Positions 19,654 through 28,570 of a stretch of 64,000 nucleotides of DNA are shown here, one piece after another (position 1 is the first letter of the stretch; each line of letters starts with the position of its first letter). The translations under genes were made by a program, and so were the position numbers. The DNA is from an uncultured Chloroflexia bacterium (lineage in GTDB: Bacteria > Chloroflexota > Limnocylindria > Limnocylindrales > CSP1-4), in assembly GCA_963790915.1 (NCBI GenBank), contig CAWBQS010000003.1, positions 1,451,711-1,515,710 on the forward strand, read 5' to 3'. The notes beneath the pieces are model-generated. The model was given only the letters and a program-made list of their open reading frames with translations. It did no database searches and had not been told where the DNA came from.

Positions 19654-20463
19654 CTACCCCGGCGCTCCTCCGGTCTCGGAGGTGCGCGCGTGGCCGACGT
19701 TGCCGTTGATGGAGAGTGCCCCGTCCACGAGTATCTCCTGGCCGGTGATGTAGCGCGACGCGTGCGAGGCCATGAAGGCCACGACGTCGGCGACCTCCTC
19801 CGGCACGCCGATGCGGCCAAGGCCGATGCGGCTGTTGTAGGTGGCCCGCACTGCCGGCGTGTAGGCCACCGAGTTGAGCGGCGTCTCGGTCGCACCCGGC
19901 GCCACCGCATTGACGGTGATGCCCTGCTCGGCCAGCTCCAGGGCCAGCACCTTGGTGAGCGCCACGATGGCGCCCTTGGCCGCGATGTAGGCGGACATGC
20001 CGCTGATGCCCTGCACGTCCGACTCGGACGTGATGTTGATGATGCGACCCCAGCCCGTGGTGGTCATGCGCTGCGCCGCCGCCTTGCAGCCGTAGTAGTA
20101 GCCGTGCATGTTCGCGGCCAGGACGGCGTGCCACGACTCCGTCGACATCTCCAAGAATGGCCGGACCATGATGCGCGCAGCGTTGTTGACCCAGATGTCC
20201 AGGTGACCCCAGCGCTCCACGACCGCGTCGGCCAGGACCTGGACGTGGTCCTCGTCAGCCGTGCTGCCCTGCAGGAAGAGCGCCTCCTTGCCGTGGGCGG
20301 CGACCAGTCGGGCGGTCTCGGCGGCGCCCTCCGTGCTGAGCTGGAAGTCGCCGGCGACCTCCGCCCCTTCGCGCGCCAGGGCGACGGCGATGGCCTTCCC
20401 GATGCCGCTCGAGACGCCAGTGACGACGGCGACCTTGCCGGCCAGGCTGTAGACGTCACTCAT
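19654..20463 (-). CDS. Short-chain dehydrogenase/reductase (SDR)
   Basis: [13 protein letters not shown], catalytic YIAAK and VAPGATET. Confidence 0.9.
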
Positions 20464-21527
20464 GATCCCCTCCTCTGGGCGGCTGTCGCGCCTGGGCGCG
20501 GGTCCAGCATGAGCTTGAGGCCGTCGGCGGCCCGGGTGCGTGCGAAGGCCGTCTGCCACTCCGAGAGGGGCAGGACGTCGGTGACGAGCGGGTCGAGCAC
20601 CACGTGGCCCTCGGCGATGAGCTTCTCCAGCCGGCGCCACGAGCGGGGCGTGCTGGCGAAGCCGGAGGTGACCACCAGCTCGTGCAGGCAGACCAGGTCG
20701 ATGTCCACGGCGATGGGCTTGCCGGTCAGGCCGACCTGGACGTAGCGCCCGCCGCGGCGAACCGCGCGCAATCCGGCATCGATGCCGCGTTCGTTGCCCG
20801 AGGCATCGGCCACCACGTCGAAACCGCCGTCCGGCGTGACGCTCCCCAGGTCGCCGGCCTCGACGACCGCCAGGCCCAGCGAGGCCGCGACGTCCAGCCG
20901 ACGGCGGTCCGCGGGGACGCCCGAGATGGTGACGTGGGCGCCCTGTGCGCGCAGCACCTGGGCGCAGAGGATGCCCATGGCACCGGGGCCCACGACGAGG
21001 GCGGTGTCACCAGGGGAGGCGACGGCCGGGTCGCAGAGGCACTGCGTGACGCAGGAGAGCGGCTCGTAGAGTGCGCCGGCATGCTCGCCGACCGACGGGT
21101 GGATCTCGTGGAGGTTGCGCGCCGGTACGAGCACGTGCGAGGCGAAGCCGCCGTTGACGTGTGACCCGATGGAGCGCCGCTTGAGGCACAGGTTGCGCCG
21201 GCCGGCGCGGCAGGCCGCACACGTGTCGCAGGTGTAGAAGTACGTCTCCGTGGCGACGCGCTTGCCGAGGTGCTCCTCCGCCCCCTCGCCCGCCTCGACC
21301 ACCCGACCGGTGATCTCGTGGCCCATGACGACCGGCGGGACGCTCACGAACTCATCCTGCTGGATGTGCAGGTCCGTGCCGCAGATGCCCGTGGCATAGA
21401 CCTCGATGACGACCTGGCCGGGCCCCGCGGCAGGCCGTGGGACGCTGCCCAGGCCGACGTTCTCGGCTCCCTTCGCCTGTTTCATGAGAGCGGTCATCTG
21501 GAGGCTGCTGGAGGCGCTGTCGGTCAT
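20460..21527 (-). CDS. Zn-dependent alcohol/polyol dehydrogenase (MDR family)
   Basis: CGTD, GHE, structural Zn CDTCAAC...C, GPGAMG. Confidence 0.9.
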
Positions 21528-21610
21528 GCCCCGATTGTAGGTCGCAGCGCGTGGCCCAAGGCGCCTGAGCAAGGCACCCGACCGGCTGCCATGGAGCGCG
21601 CCAGGCGCCC

Positions 21611-22355
21611 TCAGCGGGTCAGGCGGACGATGCGGTTGGCGGCCTTCATGATGCGGCGCGCCGTCGTCGGCGAGGTACCGGCCATCGTCTCGAGGGTCTG
21701 CGGCCAGCTCGTCCTCCGGCAGCGAGCCCACGAGCCGCAGGAGGCGGTCGAGCGACTCGTCGGAGATGCGCGAGAGCACCATGAAGCCGCGCGCGATCTC
21801 GCCCGTCTCGGCGCGGGAAAGCGTGCGCAGGGCGCGGTCGAAGAGCGTCGCGAAGCCCGAGATCTCGGCCAGCCAGCCGCGCAGGCGCTGCGCCTCCCCA
21901 TCGTCCGGCGAGGCCTCCACGACCTGGTCGGCCAGGTCCAGGCAGACTGCCAGCCGCGGCTGCAGCGGATCCGCCTCTCGCGAGCGACGCTCCTCGGCGA
22001 CACGCTGCAGCCAGCGCCAGCGGTCGCCCACGACACGCCACGCGTCGGCGGGCGGGCCGGGCCGCGCCTCGCGCTGCGCGTCCTCGACGCGCTCGACAAG
22101 CCCCCACTCGGTCAGCTCCGCGAGGGCCAGCGAGGCCGCCCGGTGACTGATGCCCAGGGCCTCGCGGATCTCGCGTTCCGTGAGGTCGCAGCCCCAGATG
22201 AGCAGGTAGCCGTGGACGCGCGCGACCGACGGCGTGATGTTCCAGGCCGGCCCCATGTCGCCCCAGGTGTCAGCGAAGGCCACGCGCACGTCCTCCGGCG
22301 TGGGGGCATCGGCGTTCGTGGGGGAGCGGGCCGGTGGGCGATCGAGAGTGACCAC
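21611..22355 (-). CDS. GbsR/MarR family transcriptional regulator (frameshift near 21700)
   Basis: FADTWGDMGPAWNITPSVARVHGYLL and wHTH ISHRAASLALAELTEWGLV. The C-terminus is in ORF 21611. Confidence 0.72.
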
Positions 22356-22390
22356 GCCCCGACGATAGCAGGCCGACCGGCGTCGCCGGT

Positions 22391-22430
22391 CACCCCTGCG
22401 CTGGCACGGCCACCCCTGCGCTGGCACGGC
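22391..22430. repeat. Perfect tandem 20-bp direct repeat
   Basis: cacccctgcgctggcacggc twice, between the divergent regulator and trpD. Confidence 0.85.
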
Positions 22431-22483
22431 CGGCGCTCGACCGGTAGCATGAAACCATCCCACGCGACAGGAGGTCAGCCCCC

Positions 22484-23530
22484 GTGACCGAGGCACCCAT
22501 CGAGGCCATCCGCGAGGCGCTGCGGACGGTCTCGACCGGCGAGACGCTGAGCCCCGGGTCGGCCGAGCAATTCATGGCCGCGGTCCTCGACGGCCACGTC
22601 ACGCCCGCGCAGCTGGGAGGCATGCTCATCGGCATGCACGCGCGCGGCGAGTCCGCTGCAGAGCTGGCGGGCTTCGTGCGCGCCATGCGCTCGCGGGCCA
22701 GCACGGTGACGGCACCGCCCGGGGCCATCGACACCTGCGGCACCGGGGGCGACGTGCGTGGCACGTTCAACATCTCGACGGCGGTGGCCATCGTCGTGTC
22801 CGCGGCCGGCGTGCCCGTGGCCAAGGCCGGCAATCGCGCCGTGTCCTCGGAGGCCGGCAGCTCGGACGTCATGGCCTCCCTGGGGCTGCGCGTCGAGCAG
22901 ACCGCGGAGGAAGCCACGGCTTCGCTGCTCGAGAACGGCTTCGCCTATCTGCACGCGCCCACCTTCCACCCTGGCATGCGGCACGCCGGCCCCGTGCGCC
23001 AGGAGCTGGGCGTGCGCACGGCCTTCAACATGATCGGCCCGCTGGCCAACCCCGCACGACCGCGCCGCCAGCTGGTGGGTGTGCCGGACGCGGAGGCAGC
23101 GCCGCGTGTCGCGGCGGCCCTCCAGGAGCTGGGCACGGAGCGAGCCTTCGTGGTCCACGGCGACCGCCTCGACGAGCTGCCCCTGGACGGCAGCGGCTAC
23201 ATCTACGACGTCTCCCCGGCCGGCATCGCCTGGCGGCAGGTGGGCCACGATGACCACGGCCTGCCGGAGGCCCCCACCGATGCCCTGCGGGGCGGGGACC
23301 CGGCCACCAACGCGCGCCTGATCCTGGCCATCCTCGAGGGCCGTGAGCACGGCGCCACGCACGACGTGGTGGCGCTCAATGCGGGCGCCTCCTTCGTGGT
23401 GGCCGGCCGGGCCGGCGACCTGCGCGAGGGTGTGGCCCTGGCCGCCCGCACCATCGCCTCCGGGGAGGCACTGGGCCAGCTGGAACGCCTGCGACGCAGC
23501 GCTGCCGAGCTCGACGGACGCGCCTCCTGA
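22484..23530 (+). CDS. trpD: Anthranilate phosphoribosyltransferase
   Basis: DTCGTGGD, FNIST, KAGNRAVSSEAGSSD, RTAFNMIGPLANP. SD aggagg upstream. Confidence 0.95.
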   Translation: MTEAPIEAIREALRTVSTGETLSPGSAEQFMAAVLDGHVTPAQLGGMLIGMHARGESAAELAGFVRAMRSRASTVTAPPGAIDTCGTGGDVRGTFNISTAVAIVVSAAGVPVAKAGNRAVSSEAGSSDVMASLGLRVEQTAEEATASLLENGFAYLHAPTFHPGMRHAGPVRQELGVRTAFNMIGPLANPARPRRQLVGVPDAEAAPRVAAALQELGTERAFVVHGDRLDELPLDGSGYIYDVSPAGIAWRQVGHDDHGLPEAPTDALRGGDPATNARLILAILEGREHGATHDVVALNAGASFVVAGRAGDLREGVALAARTIASGEALGQLERLRRSAAELDGRAS

Positions 23531-25239
23531 TGGCCAGCGGCGCCACGCGATCCACGCGATCCACGCTGCGCACGACGGCCTCCGTGCTGGACGAGATCGT
23601 CGCCCGGCGCGCCCGGGACATCGAGGTGGAGCTGGCCGGTCGGGACCTGCGTTCCCTGCGCGGCGAGGCGGCCGCGGGCCCGGCTCGCCGCGACGTCGTG
23701 GGCCGGCTGGCGCGTCCCGGCCTGCACCTGATCGCGGAGATCAAGCGCCGCTCGCCGTCCGCGGGGGAGCTGACTGGGGCCAGGCTGGACGTGGCGGCGC
23801 AGGCGCGTGCCTACCAGGGTGGCGGCGCGGCGATGATCTCCGTGCTCGTGGAGCCGCGCTGGTTCGGCGGCTCGCTCGACGATCTGCGCACCGCCCGTGC
23901 CGCCACCTCCCTGCCCGTGCTGGCCAAGGAGTTCGTCGTCGACGCCCGCCAGCTGCCCCTGCTGCGTGCGGCCGGGGCAGACGCCGTGCTGCTGCTCGCG
24001 GCCCTGCACGCACCCCGCCAGCTGGCCCGGCTGGTGGACCTCGCCCTCGACGTGGGCCTGGAGCCGCTCGTGGAGGCACATGACGCGCGCGAGCTGCGCG
24101 CTGCGCTCGGCACGAGCGCCCGGCTCGTGGGCATCAACAACCGTGACCTGCGCACCCTGCGCGTGGACACCGGGCTCGCGGAGCGCCTGCGGCCGCTCGT
24201 CCCGGACGACCGACTCGTGGTCGCGGAATCCGGCCTGCGGGAGCCGTCCCTGGCGCGCCGCTGGCGGGCCGCCGGCTTCGACGCGGCGCTCGTCGGCGAG
24301 GACCTCATGCGCAGCGGCGCCGATCCCGCGGCGGTGGAGGCGCGCGTGGCCGCCTACGTCTCCGCTGGCGCGGTGGCCGCGCCCGGCGTGGACCCGGCCG
24401 CGGACGGCCGAGCGCCCTTCGTCAAGATCTGCGGCATCACCGAGGTCGCCGGCCTGGCCGCGGCGATGAACGCGGGCGCGGACGCCATCGGCCTCAACTT
24501 CGTGCCGGGCACGCCGCGCGCGCTGACCGAGGACGAGGCCGCGGGTCTCGTCGCCACGGCGCGCGCGGCGGAGGCTGCCGGCAACGGCCCCCTCCTGGTC
24601 GGCGTCGTCGCCGATCGCCCGGCGCGCGAGGTGGCGGCGCTGGCGGCGCGCCTGGGTCTGGACGCCGTGCAGCTCCACGGCCACGAGAAGCCCGCCGACC
24701 TCGATCGCATCCCGTTGCCGGTGCTCAAGGTCCTGCACCTGCCGGCCGCGGTGGCGGAGACCGACGCGGCGGGGGATGTCGCAGGGGGAGCCGCAGGGGT
24801 CGCCGCAGGGGACGCCGCCTCGGCTGCCGCCCCGGCTGCTGCCGTCGCTGCCGCCGCCGCGGCTGCCGTCCTCGCCGAGGCCGTGGAGGCCGTCGTCGCC
24901 GAGGCCGAGCGCTTCATGGCCAGGGACAACCTCCAGGCCATCATCCTCGACGCCAGCGTGCCCGGCGCCCTCGGCGGCACCGGCCGACGCGTGGCCACCC
25001 GGTCGCCCGCGCCGTGGCTTCGCGCATCCCGGTCATCCTGGCCGGCGGCCTGGACGCCTCGAACGTGGCCGCGGCGCTGCGCGACATCCCGGCCATCGGG
25101 GTCGATGTCTCCAGCGGCGTGGAGCCACGGCGCGTCCCCCGCGACGCCGCCTCCCCCGCGACTGTGGTCACGGCGACAGGGTCGCAGGGAGGAGTGGGTC
25201 GGCCGTCCAAGGACCCCCTGGCCGTGGCCCTCTTCGTGA
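23530..25239 (+). CDS. trpC: Indole-3-glycerol phosphate synthase fused to phosphoribosylanthranilate isomerase (TrpC-TrpF; continues into TrpB after an indel near 25010)
   Basis: [22 protein letters not shown] and VAESG, followed in frame by VKICGIT, VQLHG and ILDA...GGTG. Confidence 0.9.
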
Positions 25240-26558
25240 AGCGCGCCGGAGCCGCCCGGCTGGATCTGCCCACCGTGCCCTTCGGTCCGCGCCCCGTGGA
25301 CCCGGGCCTGCTCGAGGCCGACGAGCGCGGCCACTGGGGGGTGCAGCGCACGTTCGGCGGGCGCTTCGTGCCGGAGACGTTGATGGCTGCCCTCGAGGAG
25401 CTAGAGGCCGCCTACGACGCCCTTCGCCGCGAGCCGGCCTTCTGGGCCGAGTACCGCGACCTGCTGGTGCACTACGTCGGGCGGCCCACGCCCGTCTACC
25501 GCGCCGACCGGCTGGCCGCGGAGCTGGAGCGCCGCAGCGGCCGCCAGCCCGGTCGCCTGCGCCTCTACCTCAAGCGTGAGGACCTCGACCACACGGGCGC
25601 CCACAAGATCAACAACGCCCTGGGCCAGGCGCTGCTCACCAAACGTCTCGGCAAGCCGCGCGTCATCGCCGAGACGGGCGCCGGGCAGCACGGCGTGGCC
25701 ACGGCGACGGCGTGTGCCCTGCTCGGCCTGGACTGCGTCGTCTACATGGGCGCCGAGGATATCCGCCGCCAGGCGCCCAACGTCCTGCGCATGCGCGCCC
25801 TGGGCGCCGAGGTGCGCGAGGTGACCTCCGGCACGGCCACCCTCAAGGACGCCGTCAACGAGACGATGCGCGACTGGGTGACCAACGTCGCCACGACCCA
25901 CTACGTGCTGGGCTCCGCGGTCGGGCCACATCCCTTCCCGACCATCGTGCGCGACCTGCAGCGCATCATCGGCGACGAGGCCGCGGAGCAGGTCCGCGCG
26001 CTCGAGGGGCGCCTGCCCGACGTGGCCATCGCCTGCGTCGGCGGGGGCTCGAACGCCATCGGCCTGCTGACCCGCTTCATCGGCGAGCCGGGCACGCGCC
26101 TGGTCGGCGTGGAGGCCGCGGGGGAGGGGCTGGCGGGTCGCCACGCGGCCGCGCTGGCCGGCGGCTCACCCGGGATCCTGCACGGCTCGCGCTCCTACCT
26201 GCTCCAGGACGAGGATGGCCAGGTGACCGAGGCACACTCGATCTCCGCGGGGCTCGACTATCCGGGCATCGGTCCGCAGCTCTCCGCGCTCTACGAGGCC
26301 GGTCGCCTGGAGATCCTGAGCGCCACCGACGATGAGGCGCTCGAGGGCGTCCGACTGCTCACGCGCACGGAGGGCATCCTGCCGGCGCTCGAGCCGGCTC
26401 ACGCCATCCACGCCCTGTTGGACCTGCTGGCGGGGCGCGGGGTCGAGGCGGCGGGGGAGGACGACGTCATCCTGCTGGGCCTGTCGGGGCGCGGGGACAA
26501 GGACCTGGCGGCCATCGAGGCCCGACTCATGGCCGGCGCCCCGGGCGGTGTCGCGTGA
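25014..26558 (+). CDS. trpB: Tryptophan synthase beta chain, in frame with the TrpF C-terminal segment
   Basis: [40 protein letters not shown] and [10 protein letters not shown]. The N-terminal part ([14 protein letters not shown]) is TrpF. Confidence 0.95.
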
Positions 26559-27386
26559 CGGCGCCCGCCGCCGGCGCGGTGCCGGGTCCTGCGCGGATCA
26601 GGGAGGCCTTCCAGGCGGCCGCCGCGGCCGGTCGGGCGGCGCTCATCCCGTACACCGTGGCCGGCTACCCGGATGCCGAAACGTCGCTGGCCATCGCGCT
26701 GGCCCAGGTGGATGCCGGGGCCGACCTGCTGGAGATCGGCCTGCCCTACTCGGACCCGCTGGCCGACGGCGCCACGCTGCAGCGCGCCAGCACCGTGGCA
26801 CTCCGCAACGGCGCGCGACTGGACGACTCGATCGAGCTCGTGGGTCGCATCCACGCGGCTCGGCCTGACACGCCGCTGGTGGCCATGGGCTACGTCAACC
26901 AGGTGCTCGGCGGCCGCGATGGCGCCACGGTCCTGCGGCGGCTGGGCGAGGCGGGCGTCTCCGGCTTCATCCTGGCCGACCTCACGCCGGACGAGGGCGC
27001 GGACCTGGAGGCCGAGGCCGCGCGCCACGGCATCGGCATCGTCTACCTCGTGGCGCCCACGACGCCGGTCGCCCGCCGACCCTTCGTGGCGGCGCGCAGC
27101 CAGGGCTTCCTCTACGCGGTCTCGCTGGCCGGCGTGACCGGGGCGCGGCGGCGCCTGCCGCCCGGCGTGCGCAGCTTCCTGCGCGACGTGCGCAGCATCA
27201 GCCCGGTGCCGGTCGCGGTGGGCTTCGGCGTCTCCCGGCCGGCGCATGCCCGCGACCTCGCCGCCGTCGCCGACGGCATCATCGTCGCCTCCGCGCTCGT
27301 CGATGCCCTTGGGCCCGGACGGCCGGGACGTGGAGCGCATGGCCGACCTGGTGCGCTCGCTGCGCGAGGCCACGTCCCGGGCGTAG
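26555..27386 (+). CDS. trpA: Tryptophan synthase alpha chain (frameshift near 27330)
   Basis: [31 protein letters not shown] and DGIIVAS. The corrected frame stops at TAG 27384-27386. Confidence 0.93.
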
Positions 27387-27439
27387 CCGCTGGGGCAGCG
27401 CGCGGAGGCGGGCCGCTCGCCCAGGCAGACCGACCCGGA

Positions 27440-28570
27440 CTACCCCTCGAGCGCGGCCCTCACGGCCGCAACGACCTCGTCGTGGATCGAGGCCGCCGTG
27501 GCCACGATGCCGCTGTTGGCGGTCATGCGCGTGCCCGTCGTGAAGTCGAGCGGCCGGCCCCGAACGTCCGACACGCGTCCACCTGCCTCGCTCACGATGA
27601 GCGAGCCGGCGGCGTGGTCCCACACGTTCTCTACGTAGCCGCCGCGCGGCAGCCGCAGGTAGACCGAGGCGTCGCCGCGCGCCACCACGGCGTACTTGGC
27701 CTGGCTGTCGAGGCGGAGCGGCTCCGACGTGATGCCCAGCGCGGCAGCGATGCGCACCGCGGCCGGCTGATCGGAGTGGGCAGCCTCGAACGACTCTGCG
27801 TAGCGGCCCTCCGCGGCGGAGGTCGGCGAGGCTGGTCCGCACGCTGACCCCGGTACTTGCCAGCCACCGTCCCAGAGGGGCAGCACGAGCGTGCCGCGGC
27901 CGCGCTCGGCCACGAAGAGGCAGCCCACGGCCGCGGGGTCGGTGGCCCCATCGGCAGCGCCCAGCTCATCGCCGTCGCCTCCGTCGTTGCCGCCGGCCCG
28001 CTCGCCGGCCAGCGGCAGGTTCGGGCAGCCCATGGCGGCCAGGACGACCTGGCCGTCCTCGATGAGCGCCAGCGCCACGGCGTACTGCTCGTTGCGCAGG
28101 AAGCCCTTCGTGCCATCGACCGGGTCCAGGGTCCACCAGCGCCGGTTCGGACCACCCGGGTCGGCGCAGCGGTCCAGGATCTCGCGCACTCCGTCGAGCG
28201 TCATGTCCGGGCGCTGCGCGCAGACGCGTTCGACGACCGCGGCCGCCAGCCCAGGGGACTCGACCAGGGGGCGCGAATCCTCCTCGCCCATCAGGCCGTC
28301 GTCCGGAAGTGCCTCCGCGAGGGCCAGGCGGACCAGCGCCTGCGCGCCCAGGTCCGCCACCGTGACTGGCGAGGCATCCGCCTTGGCCGTGGCCTGCGAG
28401 GGGTCGAAGTCGGTACGCACGGCGCGCGTGAGCCGGCTGGCCGCCATGACCGCCGCCACGGCGAAGCGCCGCTCCCGTTCGAGGCGGCTCGCCAGCGTCG
28501 TGCTGGCTCCAGGGTCGGGCGTCTGGCTCCCCGTGGTCGTCTCCGTGGAGCGGCCCCCCGCTGGCCTCAC
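27440..28570 (-). CDS. 3'(2'),5'-bisphosphate nucleotidase, HAL2/SAL1 type (inositol monophosphatase superfamily)
   Basis: SPVTVAD, GEED, LDPVDGTKGF, GCPNL, DSQAKY and WDHAAG. Confidence 0.85.
   Translation of the reverse strand: MRPAGGRSTETTTGSQTPDPGASTTLASRLERERRFAVAAVMAASRLTRAVRTDFDPSQATAKADASPVTVADLGAQALVRLALAEALPDDGLMGEEDSRPLVESPGLAAAVVERVCAQRPDMTLDGVREILDRCADPGGPNRRWWTLDPVDGTKGFLRNEQYAVALALIEDGQVVLAAMGCPNLPLAGERAGGNDGGDGDELGAADGATDPAAVGCLFVAERGRGTLVLPLWDGGWQVPGSACGPASPTSAAEGRYAESFEAAHSDQPAAVRIAAALGITSEPLRLDSQAKYAVVARGDASVYLRLPRGGYVENVWDHAAGSLIVSEAGGRVSDVRGRPLDFTTGTRMTANSGIVATAASIHDEVVAAVRAALEG

Follow-up and report, generated by a model that had tools for sequence, protein, structure and literature searches.

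A TrpC-TrpF-TrpB fusion gene in the trp operon of Limnocylindria and the probable origin of its frame breaks in one assembly

The 64,000 nucleotide (nt) stretch of DNA examined here (the window) belongs to the genome of an uncultured Limnocylindria (Chloroflexota) bacterium (G000; 3.3 Mb in 5 contigs) and carries a set of tryptophan biosynthesis genes in which trpC, trpF and trpB are joined into a single gene, termed trpCFB. The genes lie on the forward strand, and the GC content of the region is 74-79%. Anthranilate phosphoribosyltransferase is encoded by trpD (22484..23530; Pfam PF02885 and PF00591, 262 bits), which was present in the list of open reading frames (ORFs). Its TGA stop codon (23528-23530) shares one base with the ATG start codon of trpCFB (TGATG, 23528-23532). 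At the other end of trpCFB, the TGA stop codon (26556-26558) overlaps the GTG start codon of trpA (26555..27386; PF00290, 234 bits; TIGR00262, 216.8 bits with a cut-off of 102) to give GTGA at 26555-26558. These stop/start overlaps indicate that the three genes form a translationally coupled trpD-trpCFB-trpA operon. The initial annotation of this DNA had expected TrpA to be made separately, and trpA is indeed a gene of its own.

Across positions 23530-26558, TrpC, TrpF and TrpB are encoded in one frame, apart from a single 1 nt deletion. The ATG at 23530 begins an indole-3-glycerol phosphate synthase (IGPS, or TrpC) domain (23530..24321) that matches PF00218 over amino acids (aa) 20-264 with a score of 219.6 bits, compared with a cut-off of 27. 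The domain carries IGPS motifs, including AESG, which we take to supply the catalytic Glu, Lys, Asn and Ser residues of the (beta-alpha)8 barrel. A conserved, in-frame C-F connector (24322..24420) leads into a phosphoribosylanthranilate isomerase (PRAI, or TrpF) domain (24421..25251), of which a helix forms the end. This second barrel matches PF00697 in two pieces (55.4 and 32.2 bits, with a cut-off of 22.7) and carries KICG, the motif of the catalytic Cys, as well as ILDAS, GGTG and LAGGL; it is split in the window by the deletion near 24995 and is whole in relatives. Two inserts of variable length interrupt the PRAI barrel, one Ala/Gly-rich and of low complexity (~24730-24900) and one rich in Pro, Arg and Gly (~25131-25212); in most relatives both are shorter than here.

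The PRAI domain is followed by a Pro-rich, in-frame F-B connector (25252..25325) and by a tryptophan synthase beta (TrpB) domain (25326..26558). The latter is of the TrpB1 type, with a score of 555.4 bits for TIGR00263 (cut-off 392.45), and contains both HTGAHKIN, the motif of the lysine that binds pyridoxal phosphate, and SGRGDKD. Scores for TrpB2-type models were far under their cut-offs. In addition, TrpB chains in the PDB match the protein of a relative that is 88% identical, with E ~1e-149. In a Pfam scan, the window copy is distributed over two overlapping ORFs in different frames. The first (23530-25239) holds IGPS at aa 20-264 and the N-terminal half of PRAI at aa 298-414, and the second (25014-26558) holds the C-terminal part of PRAI at aa 5-37 and the TrpB (PALP) domain at aa 156-487.

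The initial annotation had proposed the fusion in part because stop codons were lacking at the two junctions. Its description holds: TrpC runs in frame into TrpF, the last helix of TrpF runs in frame into TrpB, and both 24360-24420 and 25240-25380 are free of stop triplets in all three forward frames. As evidence for fusion, however, this absence is uninformative, because at 76% GC the entire 3029 nt region has only 18 stop triplets (0.006 per nt), and a stop-free stretch of 61 or 141 nt is therefore unremarkable and carries no weight. The codon-position GC content of both connectors does conform to the coding signature of the genome. GC at third codon positions (GC3) is 0.92-0.93, with 0.93 in the C-F connector, and GC at second positions is the lowest of the three (0.70 in the C-F connector and 0.52 in the F-B connector, where the values for the first, second and third positions are 0.92, 0.52 and 0.92).

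TrpC, TrpF, TrpB and TrpA served as separate tblastn queries in a comparison of the window with 14 loci from genomes of the same genus and with 80 loci from a collection of genomes at the species level. The relatives are uncultured Chloroflexota and Candidatus Limnocylindrales, many of them 'MFD' soil metagenome-assembled genomes (MAGs), and assemblies were labelled as short-read or long-read from their record and contig names. In 36 loci (~30 distinct species once duplicates are removed), TrpC, TrpF and TrpB each give a single match in the same frame, and a stop-to-stop frame spans all three. Every MAG with contig names typical of short-read assemblers (megahit k141_, SPAdes NODE_) is among them. 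This intact single frame bears out the earlier statement that the fusions are not created by an indel. The window copy is 79-91% identical per domain to the intact relatives and has the same connectors and the same trpD and trpA neighbours; the 1 nt deletion is the sole difference. It shares the features that define an uncurated Limnocylindria TrpC-TrpF-TrpB family, namely PF00218, PF00697 and PF00291 in this order, conserved connectors and a separate downstream trpA.

Both connectors are conserved as protein and contain only in-frame indels in an alignment of 27 sequences. Pairwise differences at the first, second and third codon positions are 0.22, 0.24 and 0.59 in the C-F connector and 0.23, 0.17 and 0.56 in the F-B connector, compared with 0.20, 0.16 and 0.48 in the IGPS core and 0.15, 0.12 and 0.43 in the TrpB core. 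Because this third-position bias resembles that of the catalytic cores, the connectors must be translated in this frame and be under purifying selection. We therefore rejected the idea that the long frame is a mere artefact of high GC content, given its in-frame conservation in ~30 species, its codon-position pattern and the gene calls from short-read assemblies. A structural model was computed with AlphaFold2 for the intact relative that is 88% identical, using a 63-sequence alignment (mean pLDDT 86.3, pTM 0.89; the predicted local and global confidence scores, respectively). The model has two (beta-alpha)8-type domains and a TrpB domain, with high confidence in the C-F connector, fair confidence in the F-B connector and low confidence in the two variable PRAI inserts and in residues 837-881 of the TrpB domain.

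An independent start for TrpB was also considered and rejected, since there is no conserved start codon or Shine-Dalgarno (SD) sequence. As had been noted before, the F-B connector of the window has neither an ATG nor an SD-like motif, and its only candidate start codons are in-frame GTG Val codons. Among 26 relatives, seven have no ATG, GTG or TTG in the 105 nt that precede the TrpB core, a stretch in which SD-like motifs are all but missing. A different candidate lies upstream, where an in-frame GTG (24346-24348) stands 5 nt past a GGAGG (24336-24340) within the conserved VEARV motif at the C-terminus of TrpC, an arrangement that many relatives share. An additional TrpF-TrpB product could arise from this site, which is equally explained by the codons for Val-Glu-Ala. 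In either case the full chain would still be made, because TrpC is not followed by a stop codon.

The distribution of the fusion was determined in a sample of 150 genomes from the class. In the family that includes the window (f1), all genera have a single full-length match. Two genera of a sister family, f4 (g25 and g27), also have a stop-free C-F-B frame, whose C-F part is only ~40% identical. The genes are separate in another sister family, f3, mostly as trpD-trpC-trpB-trpA with no trpF in the cluster and once as an unfused D-C-F-B-A series, and the trp operon is absent from the 1.1 Mb family f2 and from several genera of f4. We conclude that the C-F-B fusion is real and is fixed both in f1 and in the two f4 genera.

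The f3 loci and a second type of trpB gene add further detail to this distribution. Three f3 loci (L107, L108 and L111, from genomes G096, G080 and G054) have the order trpD-trpC-trpB-trpA with no trpF between trpC and trpB. In several f3 genomes the TrpB match begins ~60-70 residues early, within the region that aligns to the F-B connector, and this extension may be what is left of a PRAI module that was excised. A TrpB2-type paralogue is encoded elsewhere in the genome of the window (G000:C2:304239-305300; NF009057, 710 bits with a cut-off of 366). Such paralogues (~36-40% identity) are present in nearly all members of the class, including those in f2 and several f4 genera that have no trpCFB. 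Genomes of the latter kind may rely on indole salvage or may be tryptophan auxotrophs.

A search for proteins that carry IGPS, PRAI and TrpB together had been suggested from the outset. Among public gene calls, proteins of 940-1000 aa with PF00218, PF00697 and PF00291 make up more than 120 clusters at 90% identity, which NCBI and JGI name simply 'tryptophan synthase subunit beta' or 'beta chain'. When 1.84 billion representatives were scanned in full with HMMER, other C-F-B clusters emerged, such as P0144 (948 aa, 41% identical), P0126 (818 aa) and P0127 (893 aa, from another Chloroflexota MAG). The expectation that a C-F-B polypeptide is at least rare was thus overstated: the arrangement is the rule in f1 and recurs in other clusters and within larger fusions.

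Fusions of trp pathway genes are a textbook case of operon neighbours that become multidomain enzymes. Curated NCBIfam equivalog models exist for all three pairwise fusions (C-F, F-B and C-B), and the trpCFB protein scores under the cut-off of each (268 versus 380, 594 versus 819 and 587 versus 1386, respectively). The public name of the protein follows from this, because only the plain trpB model passes. TrpC-TrpF of the E. coli type (NF006945/PRK09427; PDB 1PII and 7ETX) has IGPS followed by PRAI in one chain, as is the case here, and the match of 1pii_A and 7etx_A to the relative's protein covers residues ~10-385. However, the connector is different, TrpB follows in Limnocylindria, and NF006945 reaches 225.7 bits on the window piece and 267.5 on the intact relative.

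TrpF-TrpB proteins (NF010376/PRK13803) likewise place PRAI N-terminal to TrpB, and this is the best-scoring NCBIfam model, matching residues 289-966 with 594 bits (581-594 bits overall). The Limnocylindria protein differs by an extra N-terminal IGPS domain and by the two PRAI inserts. Further F-B proteins exist, for example P0146 (607 aa). TrpC-TrpB proteins (NF010375/PRK13802; examples are P0133, P0136 and P0138) also combine IGPS and TrpB in one chain, whereas PRAI, which they lack, intervenes between these domains in trpCFB, and NF010375 matches in two stretches.

Some fusions are larger. A TrpD-C-F-B protein from marine metagenomes (P0143, 1220 aa) and an A-F-B-D-C protein from Paulinella chromatophora (P0145, 1502 aa) each include several trp enzymes, among them TrpB, in one chain, although the sets and orders differ and trpD and trpA are separate genes in the window. 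Solved structures cover the parts of trpCFB separately, as TrpB chains and as IGPS. A TrpA-TrpB fusion chain, engineered or natural (7a20_A), matches the TrpB part. A TrpA-TrpB fusion is also found in fungi. Our literature search found no description of a TrpC-TrpF-TrpB enzyme and returned only pairwise or eukaryotic fusions. The trp fusions in two of the papers (PMC2395257 and PMC3942023) are all other than C-F-B, and the first of these mentions the pentafunctional trp enzyme of Euglena. The triple fusion goes only modestly beyond the trp fusions already known, and it is abundant in databases, though unnamed.

The architecture of trpCFB, its intact catalytic motifs and its conservation in relatives make it likely that this is a genuine trifunctional gene in a coupled trpD-trpCFB-trpA operon. 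The breaks in the present copy are most likely assembly errors with no biological meaning. Its product would be one chain of ~1009 residues in which IGPS, PRAI and tryptophan synthase beta are joined by two conserved connectors of ~25-30 residues. The chain holds the catalysts of steps 4 (PRAI), 5 (IGPS) and 7 (the beta reaction) of the pathway, and trpA is separate and coupled. By analogy with known tryptophan synthase, the chain would dimerise through its TrpB1-type domain and bind two separate TrpA subunits to form an alpha2(C-F-beta)2 particle. Such a fusion would fix the C, F and beta activities at a ratio of 1:1:1 and would place IGPS, which produces indole-3-glycerol phosphate (IGP), on the same particle as TrpA, which consumes it. 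An alpha2-beta2-type complex in this organism is putative, as the genes by themselves reveal a TrpB1-type domain and a coupled trpA.

Two frame breaks bear on this explanation. The only break within trpCFB is a missing base at ~24994-24999, next to a CCC run, compared with seven of seven aligned relatives (GTGGCCA-CCCGG, 24990..25002). On tblastn, TrpF residues 1-172 and 175-255 are in different frames across this site. A home-made, seven-state hidden Markov model (HMM) that follows the reading frame through GC3 independently placed the switch at 24995. The initial annotation had correctly reported a single indel inside the gene, but had put it near 25010, ~15 nt too far downstream. It had also missed a second 1 nt indel, in the neighbouring trpA. 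Here one extra nucleotide relative to seven relatives is present in GGGCCCGGACGG (~27314-27320), in a C/G run. The conserved C-terminus of TrpA continues in the next frame up to a TAG at 27384-27386, such that only the last ~24 residues are altered. Because of this insertion, a spurious trpA ORF of 430 aa (26555-27847) is called in place of the true gene of ~276 aa. Programmed frameshifting at 24995 was considered and rejected, since all relatives have the additional base and are read through in a single frame.

These two breaks are probably 1 nt homopolymer errors of a long-read assembly, to judge from the sequence around them and from the genome as a whole. The HMM, which recovers both trp lesions, detected 291 same-strand frame switches genome-wide that have no nearby stop codon in the old frame, or 0.107 per kb of coding sequence. 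The same model gave 0.029 per kb for 68 kb of coding sequence in the loci of short-read relatives, as against 0.223 per kb in the loci of long-read MFD MAGs. The switch rate of this genome is thus about four times that of short-read relatives. Moreover, long-read MAG relatives have frameshifts scattered at different places of trpCFB. Completeness, estimated at only 85% although the assembly has just 5 contigs, also fits with marker genes that have been broken by indels.

Several points weigh against this explanation. Two indels occur within the ~4 kb trp operon and none in ~5 kb of flanking genes, a pattern that fits early decay of the pathway, and the operon has been lost elsewhere in the class. 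The frame HMM was calibrated on a control sequence of only ~68 kb. Finally, the oligomeric state is putative, as is any advantage that the fusion may bring.

The leading alternative is that the fusion is real in the lineage but that the present copy is a true and very recent pseudogene. The PRAI deletion and the trpA insertion would then be genuine, and the organism would be turning into a tryptophan auxotroph. Two independent indels in trpCFB and trpA would be explained in this way, and the class members without the operon, which keep only a TrpB2-like paralogue, provide a precedent. Nevertheless, past the break the frame stays open for 520 codons with a GC3 of 0.94, at 87-91% identity (91% for TrpB compared with that of a relative) and with no further lesions. 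Both indels fall in C/G runs, the trpA insertion touches only the end of its protein, stop-less switches are in excess genome-wide, and related long-read MAGs have frameshifts at other places in the same gene. On balance we regard recent pseudogene formation as unlikely.

A bolder proposal builds on the trifunctional enzyme. The conserved, fixed-length connectors and the high whole-chain pTM of the AlphaFold2 model could be read to mean that the three domains are rigidly docked. Together with TrpA, the chain would then form an alpha2(C-F-beta)2 'tryptophan metabolon' in which the IGPS site lies beside TrpA and IGP, perhaps also 1-(o-carboxyphenylamino)-1-deoxyribulose 5-phosphate (CdRP), is channelled. 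If this were true, the metabolon would add one or two steps to the classical indole tunnel, with no equilibration with the cytosol. We consider this arrangement speculative and rather improbable.

It is very improbable that the long frame yields no stable trifunctional enzyme and that separate proteins arise instead from internal starts (the GTG at 24346 or GTGs in the F-B connector) or by proteolysis of the connectors: the GGAGG-N5-GTG element is present in the window and many relatives, and the F-B connector contains in-frame GTG codons in the window and some relatives, but ribosomes that initiate at trpC must make the full chain in every intact relative for want of an in-frame stop codon between domains, the GGAGG is a by-product of conserved codons, the F-B connector offers no possible start in seven of the 26 relatives, SD motifs are lacking there, and the connectors are constrained at the protein level and modelled with high (C-F) or fair (F-B) confidence.

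A clade-wide C-F-B gene provides a three-step example of trp gene fusion that includes the beta subunit of tryptophan synthase, and it could be used to determine whether tethering of IGPS to tryptophan synthase leads to channelling. There is also a practical consequence. TrpC and TrpF seem to be absent from pathway reconstructions of Limnocylindria because proteins of ~950 aa are labelled only as a beta subunit, and this mislabelling could produce false calls of auxotrophy. What the window itself teaches is chiefly technical: its trpCFB break is probably an indel of the assembly, and the absence of stop codons is no evidence of fusion at 76% GC.

Other genes in the genome supply the pathway context. 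About 50 kb upstream of the window, on the same contig, there is an open gene with the motif LESVEGG..GRYS, which suggests that it encodes TrpE. Together with the intact trpD, this TrpE-like gene indicates that the context of the pathway is present.

The frame HMM returned 17 switches in the window, at positions 2140, 2959, 3155, 6781, 8460, 8773, 9152, 10465, 15606, 24995, 38405, 41433, 43838, 44192, 48377, 53917 and 56778. Other apparent 'fusions' or 'truncations' in the window should be read with these sites in mind. Next to trpD, on the reverse strand, an ORF of 678 aa (20460-22496) consists of two genes that run together in one frame. The first part (~22355-21702) encodes a regulator-like protein with no NCBIfam match. 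The second encodes a zinc-dependent dehydrogenase that scores below all cut-offs, with L-threonine 3-dehydrogenase as the best model (197 bits with a cut-off of 380). In one relative (locus L028) the two parts lie in separate stop-to-stop ORFs, and the 678 aa ORF probably results from a lost stop codon or an indel and is not a real fusion.

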